Sequence record: NZ_CP142098.1 | Length of the DNA stretch: 64,000 nt | Direction: 5' to 3' (one strand) | Source of the DNA: a plasmid | Shown here: in pieces, positions 3,182 to 26,288 of the stretch | Layout: every line of letters begins with the position of its first letter | Numbering within the stretch: the first letter of the stretch is position 1 | Notes under the pieces: model-generated | What the model saw: only the letters and a program-made list of their open reading frames with translations | Database searches by the model: none | What the model was told of the DNA's origin: nothing | Program-made: the position numbers and the translations under genes

Positions 3182-3460
3182 ATGGTTCCTCAACGACTGA
3201 AAGCCGCGCGCCGGCGAGCCGGACTCACCCAGGAAAAACTCGGTGTGCTGGCCGGTATCGATGAGTCCACCGCCCGCTCGCGGATCTCCCAGTACGAGAA
3301 CGGTACTTACACGCCGGCGTTCACGACGATGTGCGCCCTGGCACGCGTGCTCAACGTGCCGGAGTGCTATTTCTATATACTGGATGAGGGGTTTGCGGAG
3401 AAAGTTCTGGGATTATATGAGTCTGAGATTACATCATTACACGATGACAGGATTGTATAA
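3182..3460 (+). CDS. XRE-family helix-turn-helix transcriptional regulator (92 aa)
   Basis: LKAARRRAGLTQEKLGVLAGIDESTARSRISQYENG is a canonical HTH_XRE signature. Confidence 0.7.
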   Translation: MVPQRLKAARRRAGLTQEKLGVLAGIDESTARSRISQYENGTYTPAFTTMCALARVLNVPECYFYILDEGFAEKVLGLYESEITSLHDDRIV

Positions 3461-3492: not shown

Positions 3493-3696
3493 TTATTCAT
3501 TATCTTTCAGCCAATTACCAATCAACTCTATAGTGATCTCGGTCATTTCCTTATCTTGTTTCAGACAAGCTAGCTTAAATCTCTTATGCAGGTCTTCGTC
3601 GATATTCATCTGCAGTTTCTTCGTCAGCCCCTTAGGGGCCTGAATAGCCTGCAGAGCCGGGTTCAGCTGTTTATGTTGTCCCAGTTTCATCTTCAT
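3493..3696 (-). CDS. ribbon-helix-helix (ParG/CopG-like) centromere-binding protein partner of ParA
   Basis: 67 aa; [38 protein letters not shown] matches the RHH beta-alpha-alpha pattern; start overlaps the parA stop (operon). Confidence 0.55.
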
Positions 3697-4319
3697 TGGA
3701 TCAGCTCCAGGATTTCTTTGGTCATTACATCAATTTCTCCTTTCGCTTGGCTGTCTGTCGTATCATAGACGGTGCCGCCATCCAGCATGGTTCTGATGTA
3801 TGCCTGCCGCTGGCCTGTCCCGGTTTTTAATGCTGGGATGCCAGTATCGGCAATGGATTCTTTGAGGACTTCCAGCATTTTTGCAGACGACACTTTTTTG
3901 GTTATCAGGAACCTGGCTGTTATAGGTTGTAGATTTTGCCTCGCCTCTATAACTGCAATAATTGCGCTGCATGCTGCGAAATCTAGCGGGGAAGGTGTTA
4001 CCGGGATTAAAACGAGATCGCTAACCATAACTGCAGCCGATGAGATTGCCGAGATTGCCGCGGCGCCATCGATGATGATGAAGTCATAACCTGTGAGCTG
4101 TTTCCGAACGGTGTAAACCTCCTTCTCAGAAGACGCTTCCGCCAGGTCGAACTTGCATTTATCTTCCTCATACCAGTTGCCAATACTTGCCTGTGGATCT
4201 GTATCGACAACAACTACGCGGAAACCTTGTCTCGCCAGACAGGTTGCAACGTTGATAGACGTCGTTGTCTTCCCGACCCCCCCTTTACCATTCAAAAATG
4301 AAATAACGTTAGTTTTCAT
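3693..4319 (-). CDS. parA: ParA/Soj-family partition ATPase, short type Ib form (about 208 aa from MKTNVISF)
   Basis: Deviant Walker [11 protein letters not shown]; no N-terminal HTH extension; probable start is the ATG at 4319 (SD GAGGT). The ORF track begins at 4331. Confidence 0.9.
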
Positions 4320-4337
4320 ACATAACCTCACTGTAGA

Positions 4338-4520
4338 GTAATCCTGTAATCCTGTAATCCTGTAATCCTGTAATCCTGTAATCCTGTAATCCTTGGCGGA
4401 TCTCCGATTAGAATCACATAGTTATTTGATTATGTAAATATGTAATCACATGATTTTGTAATCCTGTAATCCTGTAATCCTGTAATTATGAAATCCTATG
4501 ATTTTATGATTCTGTAATCT
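4338..4520. repeat. iteron array: 7 tandem TGTAATCC repeats (4338-4394) plus 4 further copies (4441-4520), candidate centromere/operator for parA-parG
   Basis: Direct 8-bp tandem repeats read in the sequence immediately upstream of the parA start. Confidence 0.8.
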
Positions 4521-4593
4521 TTTAAGGCTATGGCCAAGAAACTCTGTGTTGCCGTTGTTTCCATTGCAGCGTCACCCATTAACTCGCCGCGCC

Positions 4594-4788
4594 TAACATA
4601 GCCTCGCCTTGGTCTGCGGCAAGTATTCGCTACCGCCGGCTGCTTTACCCGTTCGCACTCCCTCCACGTTGTTCCAGTCGCTTGCGCATGCGGCTTCAGC
4701 AGCCGTACCTGCCTCATCCCTTGCCGGCGTGGCTAGTTCTTGCGCTATGGCGAGAAATGGGTTCTCGCCTCCATAGGGAGACAACACC
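4594..4788 (+). repeat. GC-rich structured leading-region repeat, copy 1 (short form), immediately 5' of the 4789 ORF
   Basis: Shares the core ...CCGTTCGCACTCCCT...CGCTTGCGCATGCGGC... and a flanking CGGCAAG/CTTGCCG stem with the other copies. Confidence 0.75.
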
Positions 4789-5559
4789 GTGAACAACCAA
4801 CTTTCCTTCGATGCTTTGCTGACAACTGAAGCGCCAGTGAAAAATGAATCAAGAACCACGCCCAGTGAAGCCAGGAAACTATTTATCAAAACGTTCTCGT
4901 GCGTTGCTACTTACCATCGGCGCCTCGATGTTTTCCGTGACTTTATTCGGCTGGCTTCTAATGAACTTGACCTGGCACGCGTGCGATCGGAGGAGGGGAG
5001 GGAAGAGGCAATGCAGATTTGTAAACGGTATGAGGCTGCCGATTTAGAAAAGATGCACCATTTGTTCTGTTTCCTGGTTGATGCGTTGGAAGCTGGAATG
5101 CATGACCTGTTGGGGGGGGTATTCATGGAACTGGAATTCGGCGCCGCATCAATGGGGCAGTTTTTCACGCCGCTTGAACTTTCGCGCTTGATGGCAAGGC
5201 TGACAATCGGAGAACACGTTAACGAGCTGAAACAGCGACCGTTTATTACGTTGGATGAGCCGGCCAGCGGATCGGGAGGGATGGTGATCGCTGTGGCCGA
5301 GCACTTGTTAACGCAAGGCTATAACCCGCAGCAGCAGTTGTATATTCGTTGTACTGATATCGATCCGATGGCCGCCGATATGTGTTTTGTACAGCTCGCA
5401 TTATTGGGGTTGCCTGCAACAGTTTATACCGGCAATACCTTATCCATGAGTATGTCGAAGGTTCGCCATACGCCGATTTATTACATTAATGGATGGGGTG
5501 AGAAACTTCGCTTGCTTGATATCGCAACTCGATTCCAAAAAGTGCTGCAAGCGGTTTAG
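4789..5559 (+). CDS. N6-adenine methyltransferase-like protein lacking the catalytic NPPY-type motif (HsdM N-terminal-half homolog, 256 aa)
   Basis: Motif X GQFFTPLELSRLMARL and SAM motif I LDEPASGSGGM are present; the protein ends about 90 aa after motif I with no (D/N/S)PP(Y/F/W). Confidence 0.55.
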   Translation: MNNQLSFDALLTTEAPVKNESRTTPSEARKLFIKTFSCVATYHRRLDVFRDFIRLASNELDLARVRSEEGREEAMQICKRYEAADLEKMHHLFCFLVDALEAGMHDLLGGVFMELEFGAASMGQFFTPLELSRLMARLTIGEHVNELKQRPFITLDEPASGSGGMVIAVAEHLLTQGYNPQQQLYIRCTDIDPMAADMCFVQLALLGLPATVYTGNTLSMSMSKVRHTPIYYINGWGEKLRLLDIATRFQKVLQAV

Positions 5560-5568
5560 TTTTAGGGA

Positions 5569-5593
5569 AGGGGAGACAATTCTCCCCTTTTTG
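5569..5593 (+). terminator. rho-independent terminator (GGGGAGA-CAAT-TCTCCCC + TTTTT)
   Basis: Perfect 7-bp stem followed by a T5 run, 10 nt after the stop of the methylase-like gene. Confidence 0.7.
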
Positions 5594-5605
5594 CTATTGG
5601 TTTCC

Positions 5606-5999
5606 GGCGACGTTGAGTCGCCAAAAACCAACGATCGGTCGCTTGCAGCCGGCGATGCCGGCGCCGCTTTCACTGCCCGGCCGCTTGTGCGGCCGTTCGC
5701 TAAGGCAGCCAGGCTAAAGGCCTGGCACTTTCTGGTGCATCCCCTCAGGCCCGGCATCCGCGCAGAGAGACTGTCCCCGTGACAGACGCTGAGCCGGGGC
5801 GCCGCCGGCACAAGGGTAAGCGTTGCCGGCGTCCTCACCCGTTCGCACTCCCTTCCTCCCTGCGGTCGTTTGGTCGCTTGCGCTGCGGCCTGCGGCGCCG
5901 CCCTTGTACCGTCAGCTGATACCCCGTCTCGGTCTTGTTGTCACGGCGCCAGGCTCCCCGCGCCGGCGAAAGCCAAAAGGGGAATACACCAGAAAGAAG
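5606..5999 (+). repeat. GC-rich structured leading-region repeat, copy 2 (long form, about 395 bp)
   Basis: Near-identical to copies at 15071-15464 and 20666-21025; contains hairpins GGCGACGTTGAGTCGCC and GCCAGGC-TAAAG-GCCTGGC and the long-range ACAAGGG/CCCTTGT stem; ends 18 nt before the 6017 start. Confidence 0.8.
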
Positions 6000-6016
6000 T
6001 CGTAACGGGAGGGTTT

Positions 6017-6520
6017 ATGACGAAATCACTGAAAGAGATGTTGGCCGAGCTGGCTGTTAGCAAACAGGGCAATCCGCTGCAGGACGAGCGCACGGAGGAC
6101 AATTTGGCCCGCATTTCATTGGCAGCGGAGGCTGTGTTGGCTTTCTTGGCTAGATGTCCGGGTGATGAACGCGACGTCACGTCGATTTTCGCTGATTTAA
6201 TGGCCGATTTATTCCACTTGGGGCACCGCCTGCACATGGCTGGATTTTATGCCGATTTTCCATTATGGCGGCAGTCTGTATTACTCACCGCCATGGGCCA
6301 TTTTGACGCTGAAATTACCGAGTTTTCAGAGGAGGTGATTTGTCATCCTCATGCGGCCTTCGCACTGCTGTCGTTCCTAAACAGCCGTAAGCAACCTGAT
6401 CAACACATCAGCGTATCGGCACGCTTACTTGCGACTGAACTGGTCATGATGAATACCCGTCTTGAATCGTTACCGAAAGCTAATGCACTGGCCGCCGTCA
6501 TCGCCGAAATCTACAAGTAA
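6017..6520 (+). CDS. hypothetical protein (167 aa)
   Basis: ATG at 6017 with SD GGGAGGG, in frame with the 5870 track ORF; no recognised motif. Confidence 0.5.
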   Translation: MTKSLKEMLAELAVSKQGNPLQDERTEDNLARISLAAEAVLAFLARCPGDERDVTSIFADLMADLFHLGHRLHMAGFYADFPLWRQSVLLTAMGHFDAEITEFSEEVICHPHAAFALLSFLNSRKQPDQHISVSARLLATELVMMNTRLESLPKANALAAVIAEIYK

Positions 6521-6566
6521 TCATTAGGGCGGTGCGCCTGCCGCCCTATCTAATTATGGTATCAAT

Positions 6567-6908
6567 ATGAATAATAAGATTTATTTTAAGGGTAAAAAGA
6601 CAATTGAGGTGATCACACATGCGCGTCAACAGGGGAGTGATGTGCTGTTGGTCAAGGATGAGGGGGTGTATTTGATGGCGGCATCGCATGCCAAAGGAAA
6701 GCGGTTATTGGCCTATGCGGAAGGGTTGGATCCGACGACCCGTGACAGTAGAGACGTATTTGATGAAGCCTGCCGATTATGTGGCGGTGACGACTTTATG
6801 GAGCGTCTCCCGTCGGACGACCCGACCTTTGATCATCTGCTGGAGAAACAAGGTTATCTTGAGTTTCTCATTACACAAACCGAGTTCTGTATGACGTCTG
6901 TGGGTTAA
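6567..6908 (+). CDS. hypothetical protein (113 aa)
   Basis: ORF with plausible start; no recognised motif. Confidence 0.45.
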   Translation: MNNKIYFKGKKTIEVITHARQQGSDVLLVKDEGVYLMAASHAKGKRLLAYAEGLDPTTRDSRDVFDEACRLCGGDDFMERLPSDDPTFDHLLEKQGYLEFLITQTEFCMTSVG

Positions 6909-6963
6909 AAGCGACGCCCGGTTCGCATTGGTGATAGTTCCGCGGTGTGGCAAAGCCCCCTTG

Positions 6964-7152
6964 ATACTCATATTGAGCATCAAGGGGGCCTGTGGCGGGA
7001 ACTCTTCAATAATAAAGTGACTCAGTTTGATGCGTAACAACGAAAGTTAGCAACCAATAAACTCATATTGAGTTATTTAAATTACTCATTTTGAGAAACT
7101 ATAGCTTGATGCGCTCTCTGATTTACTTATAATGATACTCAAATTGAGTAAC
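6964..7152. repeat. parC-like centromere/operator: four copies of ACTCAwwTTGAG(T) at about 6966, 7061, 7084 and 7136, overlapping a TATAAT -10 element (7127-7132)
   Basis: Repeats read directly; each is itself a short palindrome (ACTCA/TGAGT); located immediately upstream of parM, as in R1 parC. Confidence 0.65.
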
Positions 7153-7166
7153 TAAAGGGTTGTGAA

Positions 7167-8141
7167 ATGCATATTTGCTGTGATGATGGTTCTACCAATG
7201 TGAAGCTGGCCTGGTATATGGCGGGGAATTTACATACGACCCTATCGCCTAATTCTTTCCGTCCAGGATGGAAAATCGACGGCATCGGCAGCCGTCGGAC
7301 GTACAACTATTCCGTTGATGGCCTGAAGTACACCTTTGACGATGTTAGCCAGCAGGCGATCAGCACGACCAATATTGAGTATCAGTACGGTGATACCAAT
7401 CTGCTCGCGGTTCACCATGCCTTGCTAAACAGTGGCATTGAGCCACAATCGGTTAAGCTGACTGTCACATTGCCAATCAGCGAGTTCTATACCGATGACT
7501 GTCAGAAAAACACAGTCAATATTCAGCGAAAAATCGACAACCTGCTTCGACCTGTGACGTTGAATAAAGGAGACGCTTTTACGGTGACAGCAGTTGAAGT
7601 GATGCCTGAATCCCTACCGGCGGTGTTTTCTCACTTGGTCCAGGAGAATGTTGGGCCGCTGGAAACGTCCCTGGTTATCGATTTGGGTGGCACAACGCTT
7701 GATGCCGGGGTGATCGTCGGGCAATTCGACGATGTGACGGCGATCCACGGTAATCCTACCCTGGGTGTTTCTATGGTGACGCAGGCCGCGCTGACGGCGC
7801 TGCGTATGGCGGACAGCGATACGAGCGCCTATGTGGCGGATACGGTGATCCAGCGTCGTCACGATCGGGCCTTTTTGTCACAGCTGATAAATGATGCTTC
7901 CCGTGTTGATGACGTTATCGCCGCGATAGAGCACGGTATCACCCGGCTTGGCGATCGTGTAGTGAACGAACTGGCGCGATTCCGCCACGTTAACCGGGTT
8001 TGGCTGGTCGGTGGGGGCGCTCCGCTGATAGAATCCGCCGTAAGAAAAGCCTGGAAACTGTCGGCGGAACGTATAACGTTGGTCGAAAACCCGCAAATGG
8101 CGCTGGCGAGTGAAATGGCATTGTATAAACAAGAGGGATAA
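7167..8141 (+). CDS. parM: actin-like plasmid segregation ATPase ParM/StbA (type II partition)
   Basis: N-terminus MHICCDDGSTNVKLAW and an internal VIDLGGTTLD block closely parallel R1 ParM (MLVFIDDGSTNIKLQW...IIDLGGTTLD), with extensive collinear similarity over 324 aa. Confidence 0.9.
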   Translation: MHICCDDGSTNVKLAWYMAGNLHTTLSPNSFRPGWKIDGIGSRRTYNYSVDGLKYTFDDVSQQAISTTNIEYQYGDTNLLAVHHALLNSGIEPQSVKLTVTLPISEFYTDDCQKNTVNIQRKIDNLLRPVTLNKGDAFTVTAVEVMPESLPAVFSHLVQENVGPLETSLVIDLGGTTLDAGVIVGQFDDVTAIHGNPTLGVSMVTQAALTALRMADSDTSAYVADTVIQRRHDRAFLSQLINDASRVDDVIAAIEHGITRLGDRVVNELARFRHVNRVWLVGGGAPLIESAVRKAWKLSAERITLVENPQMALASEMALYKQEG

Positions 8142-8143
8142 CC

Positions 8144-8548
8144 GTGAGCGAAAACAGCAGTGATACCCGCCGAAAATTTACCAGCTATTTGCAGCTGGAC
8201 TGCGAGGCAGATCGCCAAGCTCTGAATGTGGTTGAATCCATTTCGCAGCGAGTGCGCGGGGATTTTCTGCGTAATGCCATCATCACAACGGCGGCATTAC
8301 ATCAGCTCGATTCACGATTACCAGTATTGTTGGCCACGATGTATAACGGCCAGTTGACCAGCGAGCAGCTGGTCAACCTGGTCAGTCAAACAACAGGCTG
8401 GAGACCCGAAATGGCCGCGATCCGCGACGTGGTTATGGCGTTGTCTGGTGATAATTGTCGATTGGTGGATCCGGTTGAACCTGTACAGCAGCGTAGCGAA
8501 TTGGGGCCCCTGGATGAGGCTCGCAAGAAATTGGATAAATTGCTCTAA
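8144..8548 (+). CDS. parR: ParR/StbB-like centromere-binding adaptor (134 aa)
   Basis: Small gene 3 nt after parM, as in parMRC operons; size and charged N-terminus are consistent; direct sequence similarity is weak. Confidence 0.5.
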   Translation: MSENSSDTRRKFTSYLQLDCEADRQALNVVESISQRVRGDFLRNAIITTAALHQLDSRLPVLLATMYNGQLTSEQLVNLVSQTTGWRPEMAAIRDVVMALSGDNCRLVDPVEPVQQRSELGPLDEARKKLDKLL

Positions 8549-8627
8549 GGGGCAATTATTGCCGGTTTGTCTGCATTTTTGTCTCGTTTAGGGTGCAAAA
8601 ATTGCCTGTTTTTTAAGGGGGCAATGC

Positions 8628-18880: not shown

Positions 18881-19110
18881 ATGTCAGGCAGACCACGGAT
18901 GCTGGAGCTTCCTCCGGTGGCAGGCCGCTCGCGACCCGCCATCAGCCCTACTCGACTAGCAGTCCGCACGCGGTCAGCAAGTCTCGCCGAACCCGCGTTG
19001 CGGTTTCGGGCCAGTAGGCTAAGGTCTGAAAGCCAAAATCAAGATCGACAACCTACGCTTGCAGCCGGCTATGCCGGCGCCGCTCCCACTGATCGCCCCT
19101 AGGGCGGCGA
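18881..19110 (+). repeat. GC-rich structured leading-region repeat, copy 6 (variant 5' module shared with 20520-20665; related sequence continues to about 19330)
   Basis: GCTTCCTCCGGTG...CTCGACTAGC...GTCTCGCCGAACCCGCGTTGCGGTTTCGGGCCAGT...CGCTTGCAGCCGGC is shared with copy 7; a downstream AAAACAAGG/CCTTGTTTT stem (about 19228-19275) precedes the 19351 ORF. Confidence 0.7.
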
Positions 19111-19350
19111 TCGCTAAGGGCGACCCGTCGTTCCGCCGTGCCGAGGGTGTTCATCCTCATCAATTCCCTGTGGCCATCTCTCTGAGAGTTTTTGCGGAGG
19201 GCTATTCGTAGCGCCATTCCGTTCAAAAAACAAGGTTCTGGCAAGCCACGCCGCAAGCGGCGCCCTTGTTTTTCTCCGGGCCTGTCGCAACTCGGCCCTA
19301 CGCCGCAAAGAACTCGCTGAGATATGGAATCACAAGAGGAATAGACCAGA

Positions 19351-19791
19351 ATGAACCCCGATAACGTCAACGTCAAAACCGCCGCTGCAGAATCTGCCGA
19401 GATATGTGAAAAGGCAGGAATGTGCGAACCAGAGGCCCCAGAGCCGTGGGAAAAGCCCGGCGTGCAATATCCTGCCGCCGTTCGAGCGTTGGAAATGGAG
19501 TTTTGCTATTTAGACGATCTGAATGACCTGTATGCGCAAAGCAGCACGTCACCCGACGAGCTGGAGCAGGCGCTCTATGTGATTTTCGGCCGGATGACTG
19601 AGCTTGTCCAAAGCTGTGGTGCTGATTATAAGCAGCCGGACAAACCGCGAGTTGCCTACGAAATGATCCAATATTGGGTCAGAGCGCAACGGGTCGCACA
19701 GCGTGACTACGGGGAGATCGGTCAGCGCGCCTGGGAGCATGCACGTTACAGACTGGCGCAAGAGATGGCAGTGGAGTATTCGTACAACTGA
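19351..19791 (+). CDS. hypothetical acidic protein (146 aa)
   Basis: ORF with SD AGGAATAG; no recognised motif. Confidence 0.45.
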   Translation: MNPDNVNVKTAAAESAEICEKAGMCEPEAPEPWEKPGVQYPAAVRALEMEFCYLDDLNDLYAQSSTSPDELEQALYVIFGRMTELVQSCGADYKQPDKPRVAYEMIQYWVRAQRVAQRDYGEIGQRAWEHARYRLAQEMAVEYSYN

Positions 19792-19812
19792 CAAGCTGGA
19801 CGATTTTTATCA

Positions 19813-19872
19813 AAAAGACCTGTTAACAGGTCTTTTTGGTGGTATAATAAGACCACTTAACAGGTCTTATTA
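19813..19872 (+). promoter_or_regulatory. promoter/operator of the TA operon: perfect palindrome AAAAGACCTGTTAACAGGTCTTTT, -10 TATAAT (19842-19847), second imperfect palindrome TAAGACCACTTAACAGGTCTTA
   Basis: Palindromes and the -10 element read directly; a typical Phd/YefM autoregulatory layout. Confidence 0.6.
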
Positions 19873-19885
19873 AGTCGAGGATACC

Positions 19886-20137
19886 ATGCCAAATATCATT
19901 CTGAGTGACACAAGTGCGAGCATCAGCGAGCTGAAGAAAAACCCAATGGAAACCGTTGGCGCCGGCGCCGGGTTTCCGGTGGCCATACTGAACCGCAATA
20001 AGCCAGAATTTTATTGCGTGCCGGCGGCGCTCTACGAGCAAATGCTCGATGCCCTCGATGATCAGGAGCTGGTGAAATTGGTCAATGAGCGTCGTAGCGA
20101 AGCGCTGGTTGATATCGATCTGGATCAGTTCGCATGA
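19886..20137 (+). CDS. Phd/YefM-family antitoxin
   Basis: 83 aa; N-terminal ...ISELKKNPMETV...VAILNRNKPEFYCVPAALYEQMLDALDD fits the Phd/YefM fold pattern; 4-nt ATGA overlap with the toxin gene. Confidence 0.7.
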   Translation: MPNIILSDTSASISELKKNPMETVGAGAGFPVAILNRNKPEFYCVPAALYEQMLDALDDQELVKLVNERRSEALVDIDLDQFA

Positions 20138-20421
20138 CGTATACGGTCAAATTTCGTGAGTCGGCGCTGAAAGAGTGGGGCAAGCTGGACAAATCGCTGC
20201 AGCAGCAGTTCGCCAAAAAGCTGAAAAAATGCTGCGAGAACCCGCATATTCCGTCAGCAAAACTGCGGGGGATGCCGGGATGTTACAAAATCAAGCTGCG
20301 CGCCTCGGGGTTTCGTCTGGTTTACGAAGTGATCGACGATTGCCTGATTATCGCGGTGGTTGCCGTCGGCAAACGTGAGCGCGGCGATGTGTACCAGCTG
20401 GCCAGTGAACGTCTTAAATAA
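20134..20421 (+). CDS. relE: RelE/ParE-superfamily toxin
   Basis: 95 aa; MTYTVKFRESALKEWGKLDKSLQQQFAKKLKKCCENPH...LRGMPGCYKIKLRASGFRLVYEVIDDCLIIAVVAVGKRER matches the RelE/StbE pattern. Confidence 0.75.
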   Translation: MTYTVKFRESALKEWGKLDKSLQQQFAKKLKKCCENPHIPSAKLRGMPGCYKIKLRASGFRLVYEVIDDCLIIAVVAVGKRERGDVYQLASERLK

Positions 20422-20519
20422 AAAACCATGCAGGCAATTGGCCTGCATTAATCTCACTGCGGATAATAACGAGAATTTACTGTCGTACAGGCAGATGCAT
20501 TAAAATTAAGCTATGAGCT

Positions 20520-21025
20520 TCCTCCGGTGTCTGGCCGCACGCGTCCAGCCATCAGCCCAACTCGACTAGCCGCCCGCCTGCGGTCGTCAAGTCTCGCCGA
20601 ACCCGCGTTGCGGTTTCGGGCCAGTCGGCTATGGTCTGAAAGCCAACTGCAACATCAAAGACTAGCGCTTGCAGCCGGCGATGCCGGCGCCGCTTTGACT
20701 GCCCGCCCGCTAATGCGGCCGTTCGCTAAGGCAGCCAGGCTAAAGGCCTGGCACTTTCTGGTGTATCCCCTCATGCCCGGCATCCGCGCAGAGAGACTGT
20801 CCCCGTGACAGACGCTGAGCCGGGGCGCCGCCGGCACAAGGGTACGCGTTGCCGGCGTCCTCACCCGTTCGCACTCCCTTCCTCCCTGCGGTCGTTTGGT
20901 CGCTTGCGCTGCGGCCTGCGGCGCCGCCCTTGTACCGTCAGCTGATACCCCGTCTCGGTCTTGTTGTCACGGCGCCAGGCTCCCCGCGCCGGCGAAAGCC
21001 AAAAGGGGAATACACCAGAAAGAAG
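20520..21025 (+). repeat. GC-rich structured leading-region repeat, copy 7 (composite: copy-6-type 5' module plus long form)
   Basis: 20520-20665 matches 18881-19050; 20666-21025 matches copies 2 and 5; ends about 35 nt before the 21059 ORF. Confidence 0.8.
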
Positions 21026-21058
21026 CCGTTGCGGCTTCTGAGTTACTGACTAACGGGA

Positions 21059-21523
21059 GTGGTTATGTCAACGATCGAGCAACAGCAGCAACAACAAATG
21101 GTTTTTTATATTCCGGGAACAACGTGGCCACTGGATGTCGCAATCTGGCTGGAAGATCGCTTTGTCACGTCGTCAGGCAAAACGCTTGAACAGCTACAGC
21201 AGCGTAATCCTGCATGTGTTCTGGTGTCGTATGAAGAAGCGAAGCGCGGGATGTATGAGGCCGCAAGTCTGCCTGTCCGTCGTATCAGCAAAGATGAGTA
21301 CATGGACAAGTTGGAGATGTTGCCGCCGCTCGATTGGAAGTATTTTGATGGCCAAGAATCTTTCAAGATGATGGAAATGTATTGCGGGAATATTACCGAT
21401 ATTTTCGCCCAGCTTGGCAATAGCTATTTTGCGATGCGCGATCATGTTTCGTTACCACATGCTGAGATCATGCAGCGTGTGCGTACATTTATAGATGCCG
21501 AGTCTGCGGCCGTAGCAGCCTGA
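21059..21523 (+). CDS. hypothetical protein (154 aa)
   Basis: ORF immediately after repeat copy 7; no recognised motif. Confidence 0.45.
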   Translation: MVMSTIEQQQQQQMVFYIPGTTWPLDVAIWLEDRFVTSSGKTLEQLQQRNPACVLVSYEEAKRGMYEAASLPVRRISKDEYMDKLEMLPPLDWKYFDGQESFKMMEMYCGNITDIFAQLGNSYFAMRDHVSLPHAEIMQRVRTFIDAESAAVAA

Positions 21524-21580
21524 ATAGTTTCCCTCGGTGTTAGCAACACCGGGGGATCCTCGATAAGAAGGAAATCGACA

Positions 21581-21730
21581 ATGATTATTGATGACTATAT
21601 CGCGGCAATCGGTCGTAAAATTTGGGAACAATGGCAAGAAAATAAACCGGTAATTATTCCAGCTCTTAAAGGTTTTGAGTGGGCACAGTTGCTCCGCTAC
21701 TTAGAACTAAAACGGGGCTATGCGTGTTGA
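21581..21730 (+). CDS. possible small protein (49 aa, below the ORF-track cutoff)
   Basis: ATG at 21581 preceded by AGAAGGAAA; ends TGA at 21728-21730; followed by a strong terminator. Confidence 0.3.
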   Translation: MIIDDYIAAIGRKIWEQWQENKPVIIPALKGFEWAQLLRYLELKRGYAC

Positions 21731-21746
21731 CTCATGATATGAACTG

Positions 21747-21775
21747 AGCCACCCAATTGGGTGGCTTTTTATTTC
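21747..21775 (+). terminator. rho-independent terminator (AGCCACCCAATTGGGTGGCT + TTTTTATTT)
   Basis: Perfect 8-bp stem with a 4-nt loop followed by a T-run. Confidence 0.8.
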
Positions 21776-22185
21776 GGCTGTCGCCTGTCTGCGGCGTCGA
21801 GCCGCTGACAGGCGAACAAAGCGCTTGCAGCGGGCTGAGCCCGCGCCGCTTTTGCAGTTTCCATCAAGATGAAAACTGTAAGGCTATCAGGCTCCGCCTG
21901 ATGTTACGTTTTGGTGTTTCCATTTCCTCTGCGGTGCTTAGCGGCATGTCTTTTGCTGTGACAGACCTTGTGCCGGGGCACCTACATCGCAAGGGTTCGC
22001 TACCGCCGTCCATCCTCGCCCGTTCGCACTCACTCAACGCAGTTTCGTTCGCTTGCGCATGCGGCCTGCGGTGTCGCCCATGCGTTGCAGGTTTATACCC
22101 CGTCACGGTCATTGCGTCACAGCACAAGACGCGCCGCTCCGGCAAAACCGGAATAAATGGCAACACCGAAAACAGACTGAAGGGG
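21776..22185 (+). repeat. GC-rich structured leading-region repeat, copy 8, ending at the SD/start of the DUF932-like gene
   Basis: Core CCTCGCCCGTTCGCACTCACTC...CGCTTGCGCATGCGGCCTGCGG flanked by a CGCAAGGG/CCCATGCG stem. Confidence 0.75.
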
Positions 22186-23748: not shown

Positions 23749-23894
23749 TTCTCTTTCCTGTGTTAGTCATCAATCAACATTGTGTATCAATGATATACGT
23801 CAGCGTCATCATGACACAACAGGCAAATTTGTTCTCCCATGGTGTAATGACAATCCAGGCAAAGTAGGCCATAATACGCTAGTCCGGTCTCAAA

Positions 23895-23950
23895 CACGGG
23901 ACAGGATATGTTTTGTAGCACCGCCTGCACGCAGTCGGCTCTACAAAACG
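23895..23950 (-). other. candidate origin of transfer: 9-bp inverted repeat GTTTTGTAG (23910-23918) / CTACAAAAC (23941-23949), and on the minus strand 5'-...CTACAAAAC-ATATCCTG|TCCCG-3'
   Basis: The YATCCTG|Y nick-region core of MOBP-type oriTs lies immediately 3' of an inverted repeat, 70-120 nt upstream of the mobC/nikA-like gene; the predicted nick is between + coordinates 23901 and 23902. Confidence 0.55.
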
Positions 23951-24021
23951 TCCTGGTCAGGGCAGAGCCCCGACACCCCACGAGACTGTAAACTGACGAG
24001 ACTGATAGGGATAACATCACC

Positions 24022-24363
24022 ATGAGTAAAAGCGAGCGCCGGAACAGAACAGCCCTGCTGCCCAGCATTCGTTGCTTCCCAGAGGAAAAGTCAGTGATCC
24101 AGGAAAAGGCGACCGCGGCCGGTTTAAGTATCGGGGCGTACATGCTTAAGTGTGGCCTCGGTCGCCGAATCGATGCTCGTTGTGACGTTGAGCTCATCAA
24201 TGAACTACGCCGTTTAGGTGGCCTTCAAAAACACCTCTTCAACGAGGGGAAGGGAAATGTAAGTGATGCTTTCAGCAAGCAGTATTCGGATGTGCTTGTT
24301 GCGATAAAAAAAGCCATCATCGCAATCGATATGGGCATGACCAATGAAGGTGATAAGGCATGA
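24022..24363 (+). CDS. relaxosome accessory protein (MobC/NikA-like, RHH)
   Basis: 113 aa; ...ALLPSIRCFPEEKSVIQEKATAAGLSIGAYML fits the MobC-family RxxxxxRxTPEE...A...G.S.s.Y.R pattern; 4-nt overlap with the relaxase. Confidence 0.7.
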   Translation: MSKSERRNRTALLPSIRCFPEEKSVIQEKATAAGLSIGAYMLKCGLGRRIDARCDVELINELRRLGGLQKHLFNEGKGNVSDAFSKQYSDVLVAIKKAIIAIDMGMTNEGDKA

Positions 24364-26288
24364 TTCCTATCGTTCCTGAGAAGCGAAGAGATGGCCGCTC
24401 CAGCTTCATTCAGTTGGTCAGTTATCTGACTCTGCGCGATGAGGATAAGCCTGATTTGCCTATCTCTCCTGAGAATCCCTATGTTCGTCCATCGCGTTCA
24501 AAGGCTGCAATCTTTGACCGCCTGGTAGGGTATCTTGATCGTAATGCTGGGGGGGGTCAGCAGACCCTTTTGGCTATGTTTGCAGACGGTACGCAGCAGG
24601 TTAAATCAGGCGAAGTGGTGTGTGAAACGAACTGCTTCAGTCTGGAAACTGCATCGGCGGAGATGAACGCCGTGGCTATGCAGAACACTCGCTGCGTCGA
24701 CCCGGTTTATCACTGTATTCTTTCGTGGCGTGAAGAGGACACTCCGACCGATCAGCAAATTTTCGAGAGTGCGCGTTATTGCATTAATCAGCTGGGAATG
24801 GCTGATCATCAGTACGTGTTTGCTGTCCATCGAGACACCGATAACGTCCATTGCCATATCGCGGTTAATCGTATCCATCCCGAGTCCTATCGTGCGGCTA
24901 ACATGTATAAAGATGTCGACACACTTCACAAAGCCTGTCGTCATCTTGAGTTGAAGCATGGGTTTACACCTGATAATGGTGCATGGAAAGTAAATGAACA
25001 TCAGCAGGTTGTTCGTAGCCAAAATGAATTCAAATGTATCCCACGTAAGGCTCGGCAGCTGGAGTATTATGCCGACTCAGAAAGCCTCTTTAGTTATGCT
25101 GTAGGTGAATGCCGTCAAGCGATTGGCGACATCATGGCAGATCCTGAACGCCTATCCTGGCAGAACCTCCATAATGAATTGAATCGTGCAGGCCTTGTAT
25201 TGAAACAAAAGGGGGAAGGGTTAGCCATCTACTCGATTCAGGATTCGAGCTTGCCTCCTATTAAGGCAAGCGGCTTGCATCCTGATCTTACACGTTCCTG
25301 CATGGAACCGTATTTGGGGGAGTTCACTTCCGCGCTTGATGTTGACGCTGTGGCATCTCCTAAGCATCCAGAATACGTATATGACCCGCGTTTCCACGCA
25401 CGCGATCTGATGGCTCGGGTTGAACGTCGCCAGGCTAGGGCTGAAGCAAGAGCAGATCTTAAAGCCCGTTATCAGGCGTACAAATCGGCATGGGTTCGTC
25501 CAAAATTGGATGCTGATGAAATCAAAGCCAGGTATAAAAACATGTCCAAACGTTTTGCCTGGCGTAAGGCTAAAGCACGCGTTGAATTACGCGATCCCCT
25601 TTTGAGAAAACTGACTTATCACATTATTGAAGTTGAGCGGATGAAGGCTATGGCCGCATTGCGATTGGCCATCAAGGAAGAACGACAGGCGTTCAAAGCT
25701 GCTCCGGAAAACCGACGTCTGTCATATAGAGGTTGGGTTGAACAACAGGCGTTGATGCACGATCAGGCCGCAATTGCTCAGTTGCGTGGATGGTCCTATA
25801 GATTGAAACGCTCATCCCTGACTCCTAGCGTTTCTTTGAACGGGATCCGTTTCGCGGTATCGGATGACAGCAAACCATTAGCCATAGACGGTTACCAGAC
25901 CCGAATCATGCGAGACGGTGTTGTTCAGTATGTTCAGAATGGGGTTGTTCAATTGCAGGATCGTGGTGAGCGCATTGAGGTTGCCGATTCACAGGTTATG
26001 GATGGGCAGCACATTATTACCGGGCTGGTGATAGCGCAGAGTAAATCGGGTGAGGAGATGGTACTGGAGGGCGATCGTCAATATGTCCAACAATCTTGCG
26101 AACTTGTCTCTTGGTTTAATGAAGAGTCAGGAACCTCCCTGCCATTAACAGAAACCAGTCAAAGAACGCTTGCAGGGTATGGATCATTGCCAACCGAAAA
26201 TTCTCACGGAGCAACTGATTCTAGTGTTAACGAGCAGCGTGAACTGGATGGTTATATCCAGCGGCCAAATGGTCCTCGTCCACACTAA
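24360..26288 (+). CDS. conjugative relaxase, MOBP-type (642 aa)
   Basis: Relaxase motif III VHRDTDNVHCHIAVNRIHPE (HxDxxxxHxHxxxN) in the N-terminal domain; gene order accessory-relaxase next to the oriT candidate. Confidence 0.85.
   Translation: MIPIVPEKRRDGRSSFIQLVSYLTLRDEDKPDLPISPENPYVRPSRSKAAIFDRLVGYLDRNAGGGQQTLLAMFADGTQQVKSGEVVCETNCFSLETASAEMNAVAMQNTRCVDPVYHCILSWREEDTPTDQQIFESARYCINQLGMADHQYVFAVHRDTDNVHCHIAVNRIHPESYRAANMYKDVDTLHKACRHLELKHGFTPDNGAWKVNEHQQVVRSQNEFKCIPRKARQLEYYADSESLFSYAVGECRQAIGDIMADPERLSWQNLHNELNRAGLVLKQKGEGLAIYSIQDSSLPPIKASGLHPDLTRSCMEPYLGEFTSALDVDAVASPKHPEYVYDPRFHARDLMARVERRQARAEARADLKARYQAYKSAWVRPKLDADEIKARYKNMSKRFAWRKAKARVELRDPLLRKLTYHIIEVERMKAMAALRLAIKEERQAFKAAPENRRLSYRGWVEQQALMHDQAAIAQLRGWSYRLKRSSLTPSVSLNGIRFAVSDDSKPLAIDGYQTRIMRDGVVQYVQNGVVQLQDRGERIEVADSQVMDGQHIITGLVIAQSKSGEEMVLEGDRQYVQQSCELVSWFNEESGTSLPLTETSQRTLAGYGSLPTENSHGATDSSVNEQRELDGYIQRPNGPRPH

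Follow-up and report, generated by a model that had tools for sequence, protein, structure and literature searches.

RNA polymerase reads hairpins in single-stranded DNA as promoters at the single-strand origins of rolling-circle plasmids and at the minus-strand origin of M13/f1, which yield short primers for DNA synthesis and drive no mRNAs. In the leading regions of conjugative plasmids, such elements include Frpo of F and ssi1-3 of ColIb-P9 (class 1; Masai and Arai 1997; Bates et al. 1999). ColIb-P9 carries three ssi repeats, and in pESBL every leading operon has its own hairpin promoter, six in all (Wen et al. 2025, PMC12672017); the same authors present class 3 as unlike the other classes. 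'Frpo* 1' and 'Frpo* 3' (OFEI01000013.1, insect metagenome) appear in Samuel et al. (2024) as low-certainty candidates of limited similarity to Frpo, with no structure or promoter analysis of the family. The CUP repeats of IncN pKM101/R46 (Delver and Belogurov 1997) are also conserved and also stand before leading-region antirestriction genes, and have been described as ArdK operator/promoter elements in double-stranded DNA (PMC6289460).

Here, we studied a 64-kb window (the whole stretch of DNA analyzed) of an IncI1-like (NikA/MOBP) Serratia plasmid, for which an earlier note had proposed a family of structured repeats of a type not previously known. The ssi repeats of ColIb-P9, the pESBL promoters, and the homologues of Samuel et al. 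contradict that last point, and the elements belong to a known kind. The repeats themselves are real: a repeat search of the window returned 300-nt families at 94% and 86% identity, and further families of 92, 88, and 45 nt, at the places the earlier note had listed and far beyond chance. The 15-mer CACCCGTTCGCACTC, with at most one mismatch, occurs seven times, always on the + strand and within 4646-22031, and nowhere else in the 64 kb. A core said to be shared by eight copies is thus present in seven; the eighth element (copy 6, 18881-19350) lacks it and forms a different hairpin, of a second family in which a conserved G(G/C)TGCTAC resembling a -10 is followed by AGCCCTCCGC. As proposed, a + strand start codon follows each copy at a distance of 5-45 nt, although the unit that comes next is an operon and not, as had been claimed, every single gene; ordinary promoters stand solely before the parM/stbB and Phd/ParE (toxin-antitoxin) modules. 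Copy 4, previously placed at 14268-14493, is longer, its short upstream hairpin starting at 14147.

The upstream parts of the elements are modular. A small hairpin, GCTTGCAGC-stem-GCGCCGC, lies upstream of six of the window elements. The extension of copy 2 lies beyond the terminator (5565-5592) of the methylase-like gene and is repeated at 15062-15192 and partly at 20655-20753. Copies 6 and 7 share just two upstream modules, one of 194 nt (85% identity to 20515-20708 of copy 7) and the short hairpin GCTTGCAGCCGGC..GCCGGCGCCGC. The oriT core (Table 1) holds a NikA-type repeat, GGGGTGTCGGGGC..GCCCTGACCAGG, and its region aligns with the IncI1 oriT of pESBL. The nick predicted earlier, 23901/23902, fits the minus-strand nick motif, and the oriT core marks the minus strand as the transferred one, entering towards lower coordinates.

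Table 1. Leading-region elements, their predicted promoter hexamers, and the transfer genes in the window
Feature	Position	Strand	-35	Spacer (nt)	-10	Downstream gene or remark
Copy 1, hairpin (T strand)	4569..4776	-	TTGCCG 4622-4617	16	TATGTT 4600-4595	N6_Mtase-like gene, GTG 4789
Copy 1, head core	4660-4643	-				
Copy 2, upstream extension ('long form')	5597..5727	-				Short-hairpin chain including GCTTGCAGC-stem-GCGCCGC at 5641-5667
Copy 2, hairpin	5728..5996	-	TTGTGC 5813-5808	16	CAGCGT 5791-5786, A bulged	orf167 (ATG 6017) and DUF3085; predicted start about + strand 5943-5945
Copy 2, head core	5850-5833	-				
Copy 3, hairpin	13217..13444	-	TTGCAG 13278-13273	15	TACGTT 13257-13252	DUF1281_C gene, ATG 13449
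Copy 4	14141..14493	-	TTGTTG 14308-14303		CAGCGT 14286-14281	Short upstream hairpin 14147-14175, main hairpin 14234-14493; KlcA/ArdB-type antirestriction gene, ATG 14494
Copy 5, hairpin	15193..15461	-	15278-15273		CAGCGT 15256-15251	ParB-like / psiB / psiA operon, ATG 15501
Copy 6, upstream modules	18881..19099	-				194-nt module and short GCTTGCAGC hairpin at 19057; no core
Copy 6, second-family hairpin	19100..19350	-				orf146, ATG 19351; related to Samuel 'Frpo* 5'
Copy 7	20515..21022	-	20839-20834		CAGCGT 20817-20812	Upstream modules 20515-20753, main hairpin 20754-21022; orf152, ATG 21065
Copy 8	21776..22173	-	TTGCGA 21992-21987		CAAGGT 21970-21965, AA bulged	Upstream hairpins (short GCTTGCAGC hairpin at 21823), main hairpin 21908-22173; DUF932, ATG 22192
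oriT core	23895..23985	-				Nick region ATCCTG|T, between 23902 and 23901
NikA-like gene	24022-24363					
MOBP relaxase	24360-26288					

On the minus strand the elements fold into hairpins of 210-270 nt that are more stable than shuffled sequence (z -2.2 to -7.8; -2.2 for copy 3, -6.6 for copy 7, -7.2 for copy 8) and, in all eight, more stable than the plus-strand fold. Copy 1 (-49.6 kcal/mol, z -4.4; nhmmer E 5.8e-38) and copy 3 have modest folds of -48 to -50 kcal/mol and lie above the cut-off of -75 kcal/mol applied by Wen et al. (PMC12672017). Covariation was assessed in 25 sequences from seven plasmids. Paired cells made up 94.8% of those observed, against 80% in shuffled and 34-48% in slid alignments, and 16 of the 25 pairs of alignment A1 changed on both sides, values reached by none of 500 shuffles; the set includes paralogues and close relatives, and these counts are not of independent events. 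The bracketing stem for which compensatory changes had been noted corresponds to helix 4 of this alignment, and the changes support the hairpin. Read in the minus-strand orientation, the stems hold more G·T than A·C pairs (31:7 and 38:14).

The folded strand also carries a promoter signal. TTGnnn-N15/16-xAxxxT is found on the non-template arm of 69 of 70 distinct family members; in a direct comparison, it was present in the folded arm in 38 of 38 cases and in the double-stranded sense-strand mirror in none. A covarying helix encloses the -35; the -10 falls between helices, its A bulged in copies 2, 5, and 8. No sigma-70-like site was found on the + strand within the main hairpins; a single weak + strand match (9/12) falls at 20438-20467, on the upstream margin of the intergenic region of copy 7. 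Predicted starts are near + strand 4746, 5943, 13407, 14423, 15408, 20969, and 22119.

A profile HMM built from the seven window copies only and run with nhmmer gave hits, all on the transferred strand, in pESBL before klcA (E 3e-7) and before ardA (E 1e-5) and in F before an ardB-like gene (E 1.6e-5). These E-values are modest. The sites hit are class 2/ssp2 promoters for which firing from single-stranded DNA has been demonstrated (PMC12672017), with starts mapped by 5' RACE in transconjugants (PMC12672017; PMC13478746; Fraikin et al. 2026 preprint, bioRxiv 10.64898/2026.01.09.698686), and the window family is homologous to them. Identity between the two groups is too low for blastn. Like the window copies, ssp2, which stands before klcA/ardB and ardA, is a long GC-rich hairpin of the transferred strand, and the two share the blocks GCCGTG, A(A/G)GCCGCA, G(A/C)CGGGTGA, CGGCGAAGCGTACCCTTG, CCCGGCT, and CACGGC. 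By our own assignment of the -35, -10, and start positions, class 2 has TTGCAT, N15, and TAAGAT on the 3' arm. The window copies differ in a much shorter apex, that of F and pESBL having an insert of ~60 nt, in a weak -10 of CAGCGT or CAAGGT in five of seven against TAnnnT, in number (seven on this plasmid against one or two), and, in about half of them, in a 50-bp lower stem and an upstream chain of small hairpins 130-240 nt long.

Before the DUF1281 / orf / M.EcoGIX cluster, pESBL and F have a hairpin (nhmmer E 2e-7), probably Wen's class 3 or ssp3, with the short apex of the window copies and the sequences AAGCCGCAGCGC, GACCGGGTGAGGA, and CACTTGCAT-N15-TAACGT-..GGCACGG; the profile places it in the window superfamily, whereas Wen et al. 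set class 3 apart from the other classes. 'Frpo* 1' and 'Frpo* 3' are direct homologues that share the core GCGAACGGGTGAGGA (copy 3 against 'Frpo* 1', 72% identity over 191 nt, E 1e-19). Class 1 agrees with the window elements in logic, strand, position, and the presence of several dispersed repeats per leading region, and the small GCTTGCAGC-stem-GCGCCGC hairpin also precedes Frpo1 and Frpo2 of F, but no similarity of the main hairpins to Frpo/ssi was detectable and the class 1 apex is A/T-rich (AAAAGTTTTT) where the window has a GC-rich head. With the rolling-circle and M13 origins, the likeness is one of function. More widely, a database search with the core recovered relatives on plasmid-size contigs before anti-defence genes: in 185,579 species genomes, the core 19-mer turned up in 46 stretches, whose contigs are all at most 400 kb long and in many cases named plasmids. 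The plasmids that bear it have very different backbones and hosts. Distant members lie upstream of ArdA, KlcA, methylase, ArdC-N/DUF3560, and CbeA genes.

The computational checks suggested in the earlier note all came out in favor of single-strand promoters, and we consider it likely that the window elements belong to the ssp2/ssp3 type (class 2/3) of such promoters. In conjugation, the minus strand would enter the recipient from the nick with its 5' end leading, so that the region from 22 kb to 4.5 kb would arrive first, and each element would form a long imperfect hairpin. The arm nearer the 3' end would serve as the non-template strand of a sigma-70 promoter, with a base-paired TTGnnn -35 and, after 15-16 nt, a partly unpaired xAxxxT -10. 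RNA polymerase would start near the conserved CACGG and, with the 5' arm as template, leave the hairpin at its base and run into the + strand operon 5-45 nt beyond. Complementary-strand synthesis would then iron out the hairpin and turn the promoter off, because the sense strand has no -10 and, owing to G·T pairs in the stem, often no TTG. Anti-defence and establishment genes would in this way be switched on early.

The hairpins might instead act mainly in DNA synthesis, as ssi priming sites and/or as roadblocks that delay double-stranding of the leading region, a role that could coexist with promoter activity. Frpo transcripts do prime DNA synthesis, and in F, synthesis of the complementary strand halts where the ssp2 stem ends, pending resolution by UvrD (bioRxiv 10.64898/2026.01.09.698686). 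The hairpins of the window are likewise long and rich in GC, and promoter function does not account for their near-invariant head and GCGAAGC-type mini-hairpin. The sequence of that mini-hairpin was first described in the complementary-strand origin of phage G4. We nevertheless regard this as unlikely to be their main role, since the near-universal hexamers and the strand asymmetry are promoter-specific, and a position directly before each operon would be needless for a pure priming or roadblock signal. Less likely still is that the head is a double-stranded operator through which a plasmid repressor co-regulates all leading operons. The CUP repeats, as ArdK binding sites, offer a precedent (PMC6289460), the head is conserved in sequence beyond pairing, and an HTH gene lies within the second operon (8628-9035). 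However, the HMM has no match in R46, one common repressor is improbable for a 19-mer on such different backbones and hosts, the elements have no accompanying + strand sigma-70 promoter, and the G·T bias and covariation indicate a folded single strand.

Ordinary promoters with a structured 5' UTR acting as a + strand RNA element are very improbable. The elements do lie 5' of genes and the + strand RNA folds below shuffles, but its z of -3.9 is weaker than that of minus-strand DNA, + strand folding would turn many G·T pairs into A·C mismatches, and the start predicted inside the hairpin would leave most of it outside the RNA. Rfam gives no family at gathering threshold in the region, and the main hairpins hold no + strand sigma-70 site. 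We give least credence of all to selfish interspersed repeats (REP/ERIC/MITE-like) with no part in conjugation. Being multi-copy, intergenic, and palindromic suits such repeats, and the 86-100% mutual identity of copies 2, 5, and 7 suggests recent spread or gene conversion. Against this, all copies have one orientation and are confined to the leading region, orthologous genes in pADAP and pYR6 are preceded by orthologous copies, a search of 2.9 million viral contigs found none, and the plasmid-size contigs described above take the place of the random chromosomal scatter that the earlier note had named as refuting.

Within the single-strand promoters that we favor, conservation is highest in the apical head, above the promoter hexamers, and the promoter model gives no account of this. 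The head is kept in sequence and not in pairing alone, with non-Watson-Crick positions and a GCGAAGC-type mini-hairpin. Three features may be new: the near-invariant head (identical over 19 nt in members from across Proteobacteria, and exchangeable between promoter classes), a -10 that in five of seven copies lacks the T normally found at its first position, and the mini-hairpin beside the -35.

The repeats of the leading region are a seven-copy family of the ssp2/ssp3 kind, that is, of the single-stranded DNA (ssDNA) hairpin promoters grouped as class 2 (ssp2) and class 3 (ssp3) beside class 1 (Frpo/ssi), and they are a new member of this kind. The type of element is not: the earlier note knew of nothing like it, but several dispersed ssDNA promoters per leading region were already described in 1999, homologs of these very repeats were given as candidates in 2024 (Samuel et al.), and hairpins of three classes, one to each leading operon, were reported in 2025 (PMC12672017). 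The mechanism that the note proposed, promoters that fire on the incoming single strand, is well supported in silico. By this mechanism, a −35 and a −10 would be reconstituted in the stem of the folded transferred strand, pointing to the downstream gene.

The geometry of transfer was established by comparison with known plasmids. The closest match of the window is S. marcescens AP028474.1 (99% identity), and the plasmid is a member of the pADAP group. Its 4.5–23 kb region shares synteny with the F leading region and with that of pESBL (IncI1), whose oriT aligns with the window across both the block CGGGACAGGAT and the NikA-type repeat. Going by R64 and RP4, we take the nick to be ATCCTG|T, and this sequence is found on the minus strand exactly where the nick had been predicted, within the region that aligns with the pESBL oriT. 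A nick there sends the minus strand into the recipient first, towards lower coordinates, as the template for all these + strand genes. The claimed geometry is thus upheld by the nick strand, by the NikA/MOBP relaxase, and by the position of 7/7 copies before + strand genes. All seven copies (4.5–22.2 kb) have the leading-region location on the transferred strand that characterizes class 2 and class 3 promoters.

A repeat search of the window confirmed that the repeats are real, with a 15-mer of their core occurring seven times, on the + strand only. Of the eight copies said to share this core (numbered 1–8 along the region), seven do; the core is absent from copy 6, which shares two upstream modules with copy 7 yet has a different hairpin. 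Nor is there one element before every gene, as had been thought: the elements precede transcription units, and parM and the Phd/ParE pair have promoters of their own, an ordinary one for parM (TTGATG-16-TATAAT) and, for Phd/ParE, a classical extended −10 promoter (TGGTATAAT) between operator-like AAGACCTGTTAACAGGTCTT-type palindromes. Maintenance modules therefore keep ordinary double-strand promoters, whereas establishment genes use hairpins. Six window elements are accompanied by a small upstream hairpin of the form GCTTGCAGC-stem-loop-stem-GCGCCGC, the stem of which varies compensatorily (CCGGC/GCCGG vs. CGACCG/CGGTCG), and the GCTTGCAGC-GCGCCGC motif also lies upstream of Frpo1 and Frpo2 of F (about 10200 and 15560). 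Three copies with unrelated downstream genes are 86%–100% identical across ~400 nt, and their pADAP orthologs are more diverged from one another; this suggests that promoters within the plasmid have recently undergone gene conversion or recombination with one another.

Features of the window, with positions and strands where assigned
Feature	Position	Strand	Remark
ParA gene (ParA-type ATPase)	3693-4331	minus	divergent from leading genes
GTAATCCT tandem repeats	4338-4520		between ParA gene and first hairpin promoter
Leading genes after ParA, first part		plus	N6-methylase-like, orf167, DUF3085, parM/stbB, HTH gene, IS66 insertion, pectate lyase
Leading genes, second part		plus	DUF1281_C, KlcA/ArdB-type antirestriction, ParB-like, psiB, psiA, orf146, Phd/ParE, orf152, DUF932, DUF5983
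Core 15-mer, seven occurrences	4646-22031	plus	
Three near-identical copies	5597-5999, 15062-15464, 20623-21025		
Small GCTTGCAGC hairpins	5641-5667, 14147-14175, 15106-15132, 19057-19083, 20667-20693, 21823-21849		
parM promoter	7106-7133		
IS66-family element	9032-11665	as leading genes	three ORFs
Pectate lyase gene	11881-12819	as leading genes	
Copy 6	18881-19350		lacks core
Second-family hairpin	19100-19350		hairpin of copy 6
Phd/ParE promoter region with palindromes	19800-19885		operator-like
Phd/ParE promoter	19840-19848		extended −10
Weak sigma-70 match (9/12)	20438-20467	plus	upstream edge of copy 7 intergenic region
Region aligned with pESBL oriT	23890-23990		
Predicted nick	23901/23902	minus	
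NikA-like gene, then MOBP relaxase			beyond DUF5983 and oriT
PK-repBA pseudoknot	63756-63879		far end of window

Membership of the family in classes 2 and 3 was recognized by profile search. A "distant" blastn search with a long copy as query, covering 72,556 plasmids, gave matches in Serratia, Yersinia, Enterobacter, and Erwinia and none in F or IncI1, so that homology to ssp2 emerged only with a profile. An nhmmer profile built from the seven window hairpins alone matched, on the minus strand, the sites immediately upstream of klcA (E 3e-7) and ardA (E 1e-5) in pESBL and the site upstream of the ardB-like gene in F (NC_002483; E 1.6e-5). These matches are class 2 (ssp2) single-strand promoters, the start sites of which have been mapped by 5′ RACE in transconjugants (Wen et al., PMC12672017); ssp2 was also found independently by a third group, through folding (PMC13478746), and complementary-strand synthesis is stalled at it until UvrD acts (Fraikin et al., bioRxiv 10.64898/2026.01.09.698686). 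In both F and pESBL, the profile further matched the hairpin that precedes the DUF1281 / orf / M.EcoGIX cluster (E 2e-7), which is probably class 3 (ssp3), because folding of the DNA upstream of DUF1281 reaches −80 kcal/mol and the gap just before the methylase gene contains only a small hairpin (−17.7 kcal/mol). The family member before this DUF1281 / orf / methylase cluster (pESBL, 3277–3406; F, 4661–4791) reads TTGCAT-N15-TAACGT; at the same place in F, no promoter had been found for “the next cluster of genes” (PMC13478746). Invariant blocks are common to the window copies and to the class 2 and DUF1281-site elements in a 25-copy alignment, and classes 2 and 3 are apparently one unit. Among the sequences of Samuel et al. 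(2024), which are given in transferred-strand orientation, “Frpo* 1” aligns with copy 3 over 191 nt (72%, E 1e-19), “Frpo* 3” is a match as well, and “Frpo* 5” matches the second-family hairpin, the type found in copy 6. No match to class 1 was obtained when every copy and the whole window were compared by blastn with F ssiD, ColIb Frpo1, and Frpo' 1, and the family differs in sequence from the IncN CUP repeats of R46/pKM101 (best E for the nhmmer family profile on R46, 7.4, no match).

The fold provides a constraint of a different kind. Each main element folds as a single long imperfect hairpin of 210–270 nt, with the conserved core at its apex and its base adjoining the ribosome-binding site of the next gene; the minimum-energy folds of copies 3, 4, and 7 were branched in the windows chosen. 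The minus strand was more stable than the plus strand in 8/8 intergenic regions and 8/8 hairpins (for the copy 2 region as ssDNA, −134 kcal/mol, z −7.8, vs. −118.5 kcal/mol, z −6.2), and all eight minus-strand hairpins folded better than shuffled sequences (z −2.2 to −7.2), in line with the claim of the earlier note. Taken alone, the hairpins of copies 2, 5, and 7 fold at −78 to −80 kcal/mol, copy 8 at −72.6, copy 4 at −63, copy 1 at −50, and copy 3 at −48 kcal/mol, so that three to four of them miss the cut-off for large stem-loops of Wen et al. (below −75 kcal/mol; PMC12672017); whole intergenic regions fold at −56 to −170 kcal/mol. Structure was supported by a sequence profile together with pair counts in the 25-copy alignment, which was made in transferred-strand orientation from the window, pADAP, Yersinia pYR6, an Erwinia plasmid, an Enterobacter IncF plasmid, pESBL, and F. 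Here, 94.8% of alignment cells at 25 consensus pairs were paired, compared with 80% in shuffled and 34%–48% in slid alignments; 16 pairs had changes on both sides, and the observed values were reached by 0/500 shuffles. The excess of G·T over A·C (31:7, and 38:14 in a second alignment of 35 heads), together with a column of the most conserved stem that is A·T in 11 sequences and G·T in 10 (T·A and C·A if read on the other strand), shows that the folded molecule is the minus strand and not the + strand or a + RNA.

Within a covarying helix of the alignment, an invariant CTTG supplies the TTG with which a −35-like hexamer starts. On the 3′ arm, 15–16 nt past this hexamer, xAxxxT occurs in 69/70 distinct family members, including 7/7 window copies; its A and T are the −10 positions of greatest weight for sigma-70. 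The fuller TAxxxT is found in 45 of the 69 and, among window copies, in copies 1 and 3 only. The −10 lies between two conserved helices, with its A bulged in copies 2, 5, and 8, and in F ssp2 it lies in a 3×3 internal loop. A conserved CACGG seven nucleotides beyond the −10 faces a conserved GCCGTG of the template arm, and from its position we predict start sites at about 4746, 5943, 13407, 14423, 15408, 20969, and 22119 of the + strand, with leaders of about 40–95 nt.

The promoter was present on the folded arm in 38/38 members tested and on the sense-strand mirror (the complement of the 5′ arm, as in double-stranded DNA) in 0/38, which bears out the suggestion that hexamers are created only in the folded minus strand; the sense strand lacks a promoter for two reasons: the template arm has bulges, and the G·T pairs of the −35 stem make the TTG a CTG on the sense strand. 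A sigma-70 consensus scan of the + strand found no site in the main hairpins, and its lone weak match lies outside them (table). A promoter on the 5′ arm of copy 2, GTGACA-N17-TATCAG, was considered and rejected, since it lacks conservation and faces the spacer of the conserved 3′-arm promoter. That the family might be an interspersed repeat of REP, ERIC, or MITE type was also rejected, given its single orientation, its restriction to the leading region and to plasmid-size contigs, and its absence from viral contigs.

By blastn, the main family was found on 158 plasmid records, at three to six places each, where it is unannotated, and by profile search pADAP has seven copies, pYR6 eight, and the Erwinia plasmid five, with orthologous genes preceded by orthologous copies. 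The 19-mer GAGTGCGAACGGGTGAGGA is found without mismatch in 46 stretches of a species-genome collection (~4 expected by chance), all on contigs of ≤400 kb, and in none of 2.9 million viral contigs. Its hosts include Pantoea, Rahnella, Yersinia, Aeromonas, Xanthomonas, Pseudoxanthomonas, Pseudomonas, Hydrogenophaga, Thiobacillus, Methylomonas, and several metagenome bins, and the genes just downstream in distant hosts encode ArdA, KlcA-type proteins, N6/N4 methylases, ArdC-N/DUF3560 polyvalent proteins, and CbeA.

Conservation is strongest not in the hexamers but in the head, the near-invariant apical part of the hairpin, and this is not explained by the promoter model. Its blocks are A(A/G)GCCGCA(N)GCGCAA on the 5′ arm and the 19-mer GAGTGCGAACGGGTGAGGA on the 3′ arm. 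Because RNAalifold recovered only the −35 stem and GCC/GGC from the head alignment, head helices were proposed from base-pair probabilities and then counted. The counts fit a continuous irregular duplex comprising a variable helix with 6/6 pairs covarying, CCG·CGG (G·C replaced by A·T in two sequences), and CGCA·TGCG, with a variable terminal hairpin beyond it; mismatches occupy several of the invariant positions, and there are conserved purine–purine mismatches. Just 5′ of the −35, GC-N3-4-GC can form in 58/62 distinct sequences, most commonly as GCGAAGC (21/62; GC-GAA-GC, 2–3 nt before the −35), and six variants lengthen the stem to GGC..GCC. Hirao and colleagues are said to have called d(GCGAAGC) and d(GCGAAAGC) “extraordinarily stable mini-hairpins,” first noticed in the complementary-strand origin of phage G4, and the likeness to that origin may serve as a lead.

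A second family of transferred-strand hairpins, represented in the window by copy 6, has relatives in other sequences compared (L003, L006, L023, L024, L028, and L041) and conserves GGTGCTAC...AGCCCTCCGCG. Its members have a lower stem in common, topped in each case by one of three apexes: a short apex, the Frpo apex AAAAGTTTTT of class 1, which is A/T-rich, or the GC-rich head of the main family. The head thus behaves as a swappable module, and the variety of apexes suggests that promoter classes have traded hairpin tips as modules. A broader possibility, which we regard as rather unlikely, is that the head, taken together with the GC-GAA-GC mini-hairpin, is an autonomous module specific to the single-stranded form and recognized by a conserved host factor (RNA polymerase, primase, or helicase), that it unites ssp2 and ssp3 as one superfamily across Proteobacteria and can be swapped onto other promoter stems, and that it sets polymerase recruitment, priming, or a replication roadblock.

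The choice of plasmid genes expressed in the first minutes after transfer (antirestriction, SOS inhibition, methylation) falls to single-strand promoters, which thereby affect plasmid survival in the face of recipient defenses. In the Serratia pADAP-like group, one promoter family wires nearly the whole leading region, which makes it a compact natural test bed of seven paralogous promoters graded both in the quality of the −10 and in the strength of the hairpin. Follow-up is warranted for the weak −10 of five copies, for the apparent unity of classes 2 and 3, and for the head, which the promoter model leaves unexplained. Testable rules for spotting such promoters in unannotated plasmids are a paired TTG, a conserved head, a −10 with an A and a T six and one positions before its spacer end, and G·T pairs through which the sense strand loses the promoter.

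Other features were observed around the repeats. The IS66-family element and the pectate lyase gene are inserted in the second leading operon, between the HTH gene and copy 3. Next to the ParA gene, the 8-bp unit GTAATCCT is repeated in two clusters, with seven and four perfect copies and some degenerate ones; the array probably serves a partition system as centromere or operator. ATCCTG, the hexamer of the oriT nick region, recurs at each unit junction. An Rfam 15 scan of the whole window at gathering score gave no match in the repeat region; its sole match, at 88.8 bits, is the PK-repBA pseudoknot, the mark of a repA control region of IncFII/IncI type.
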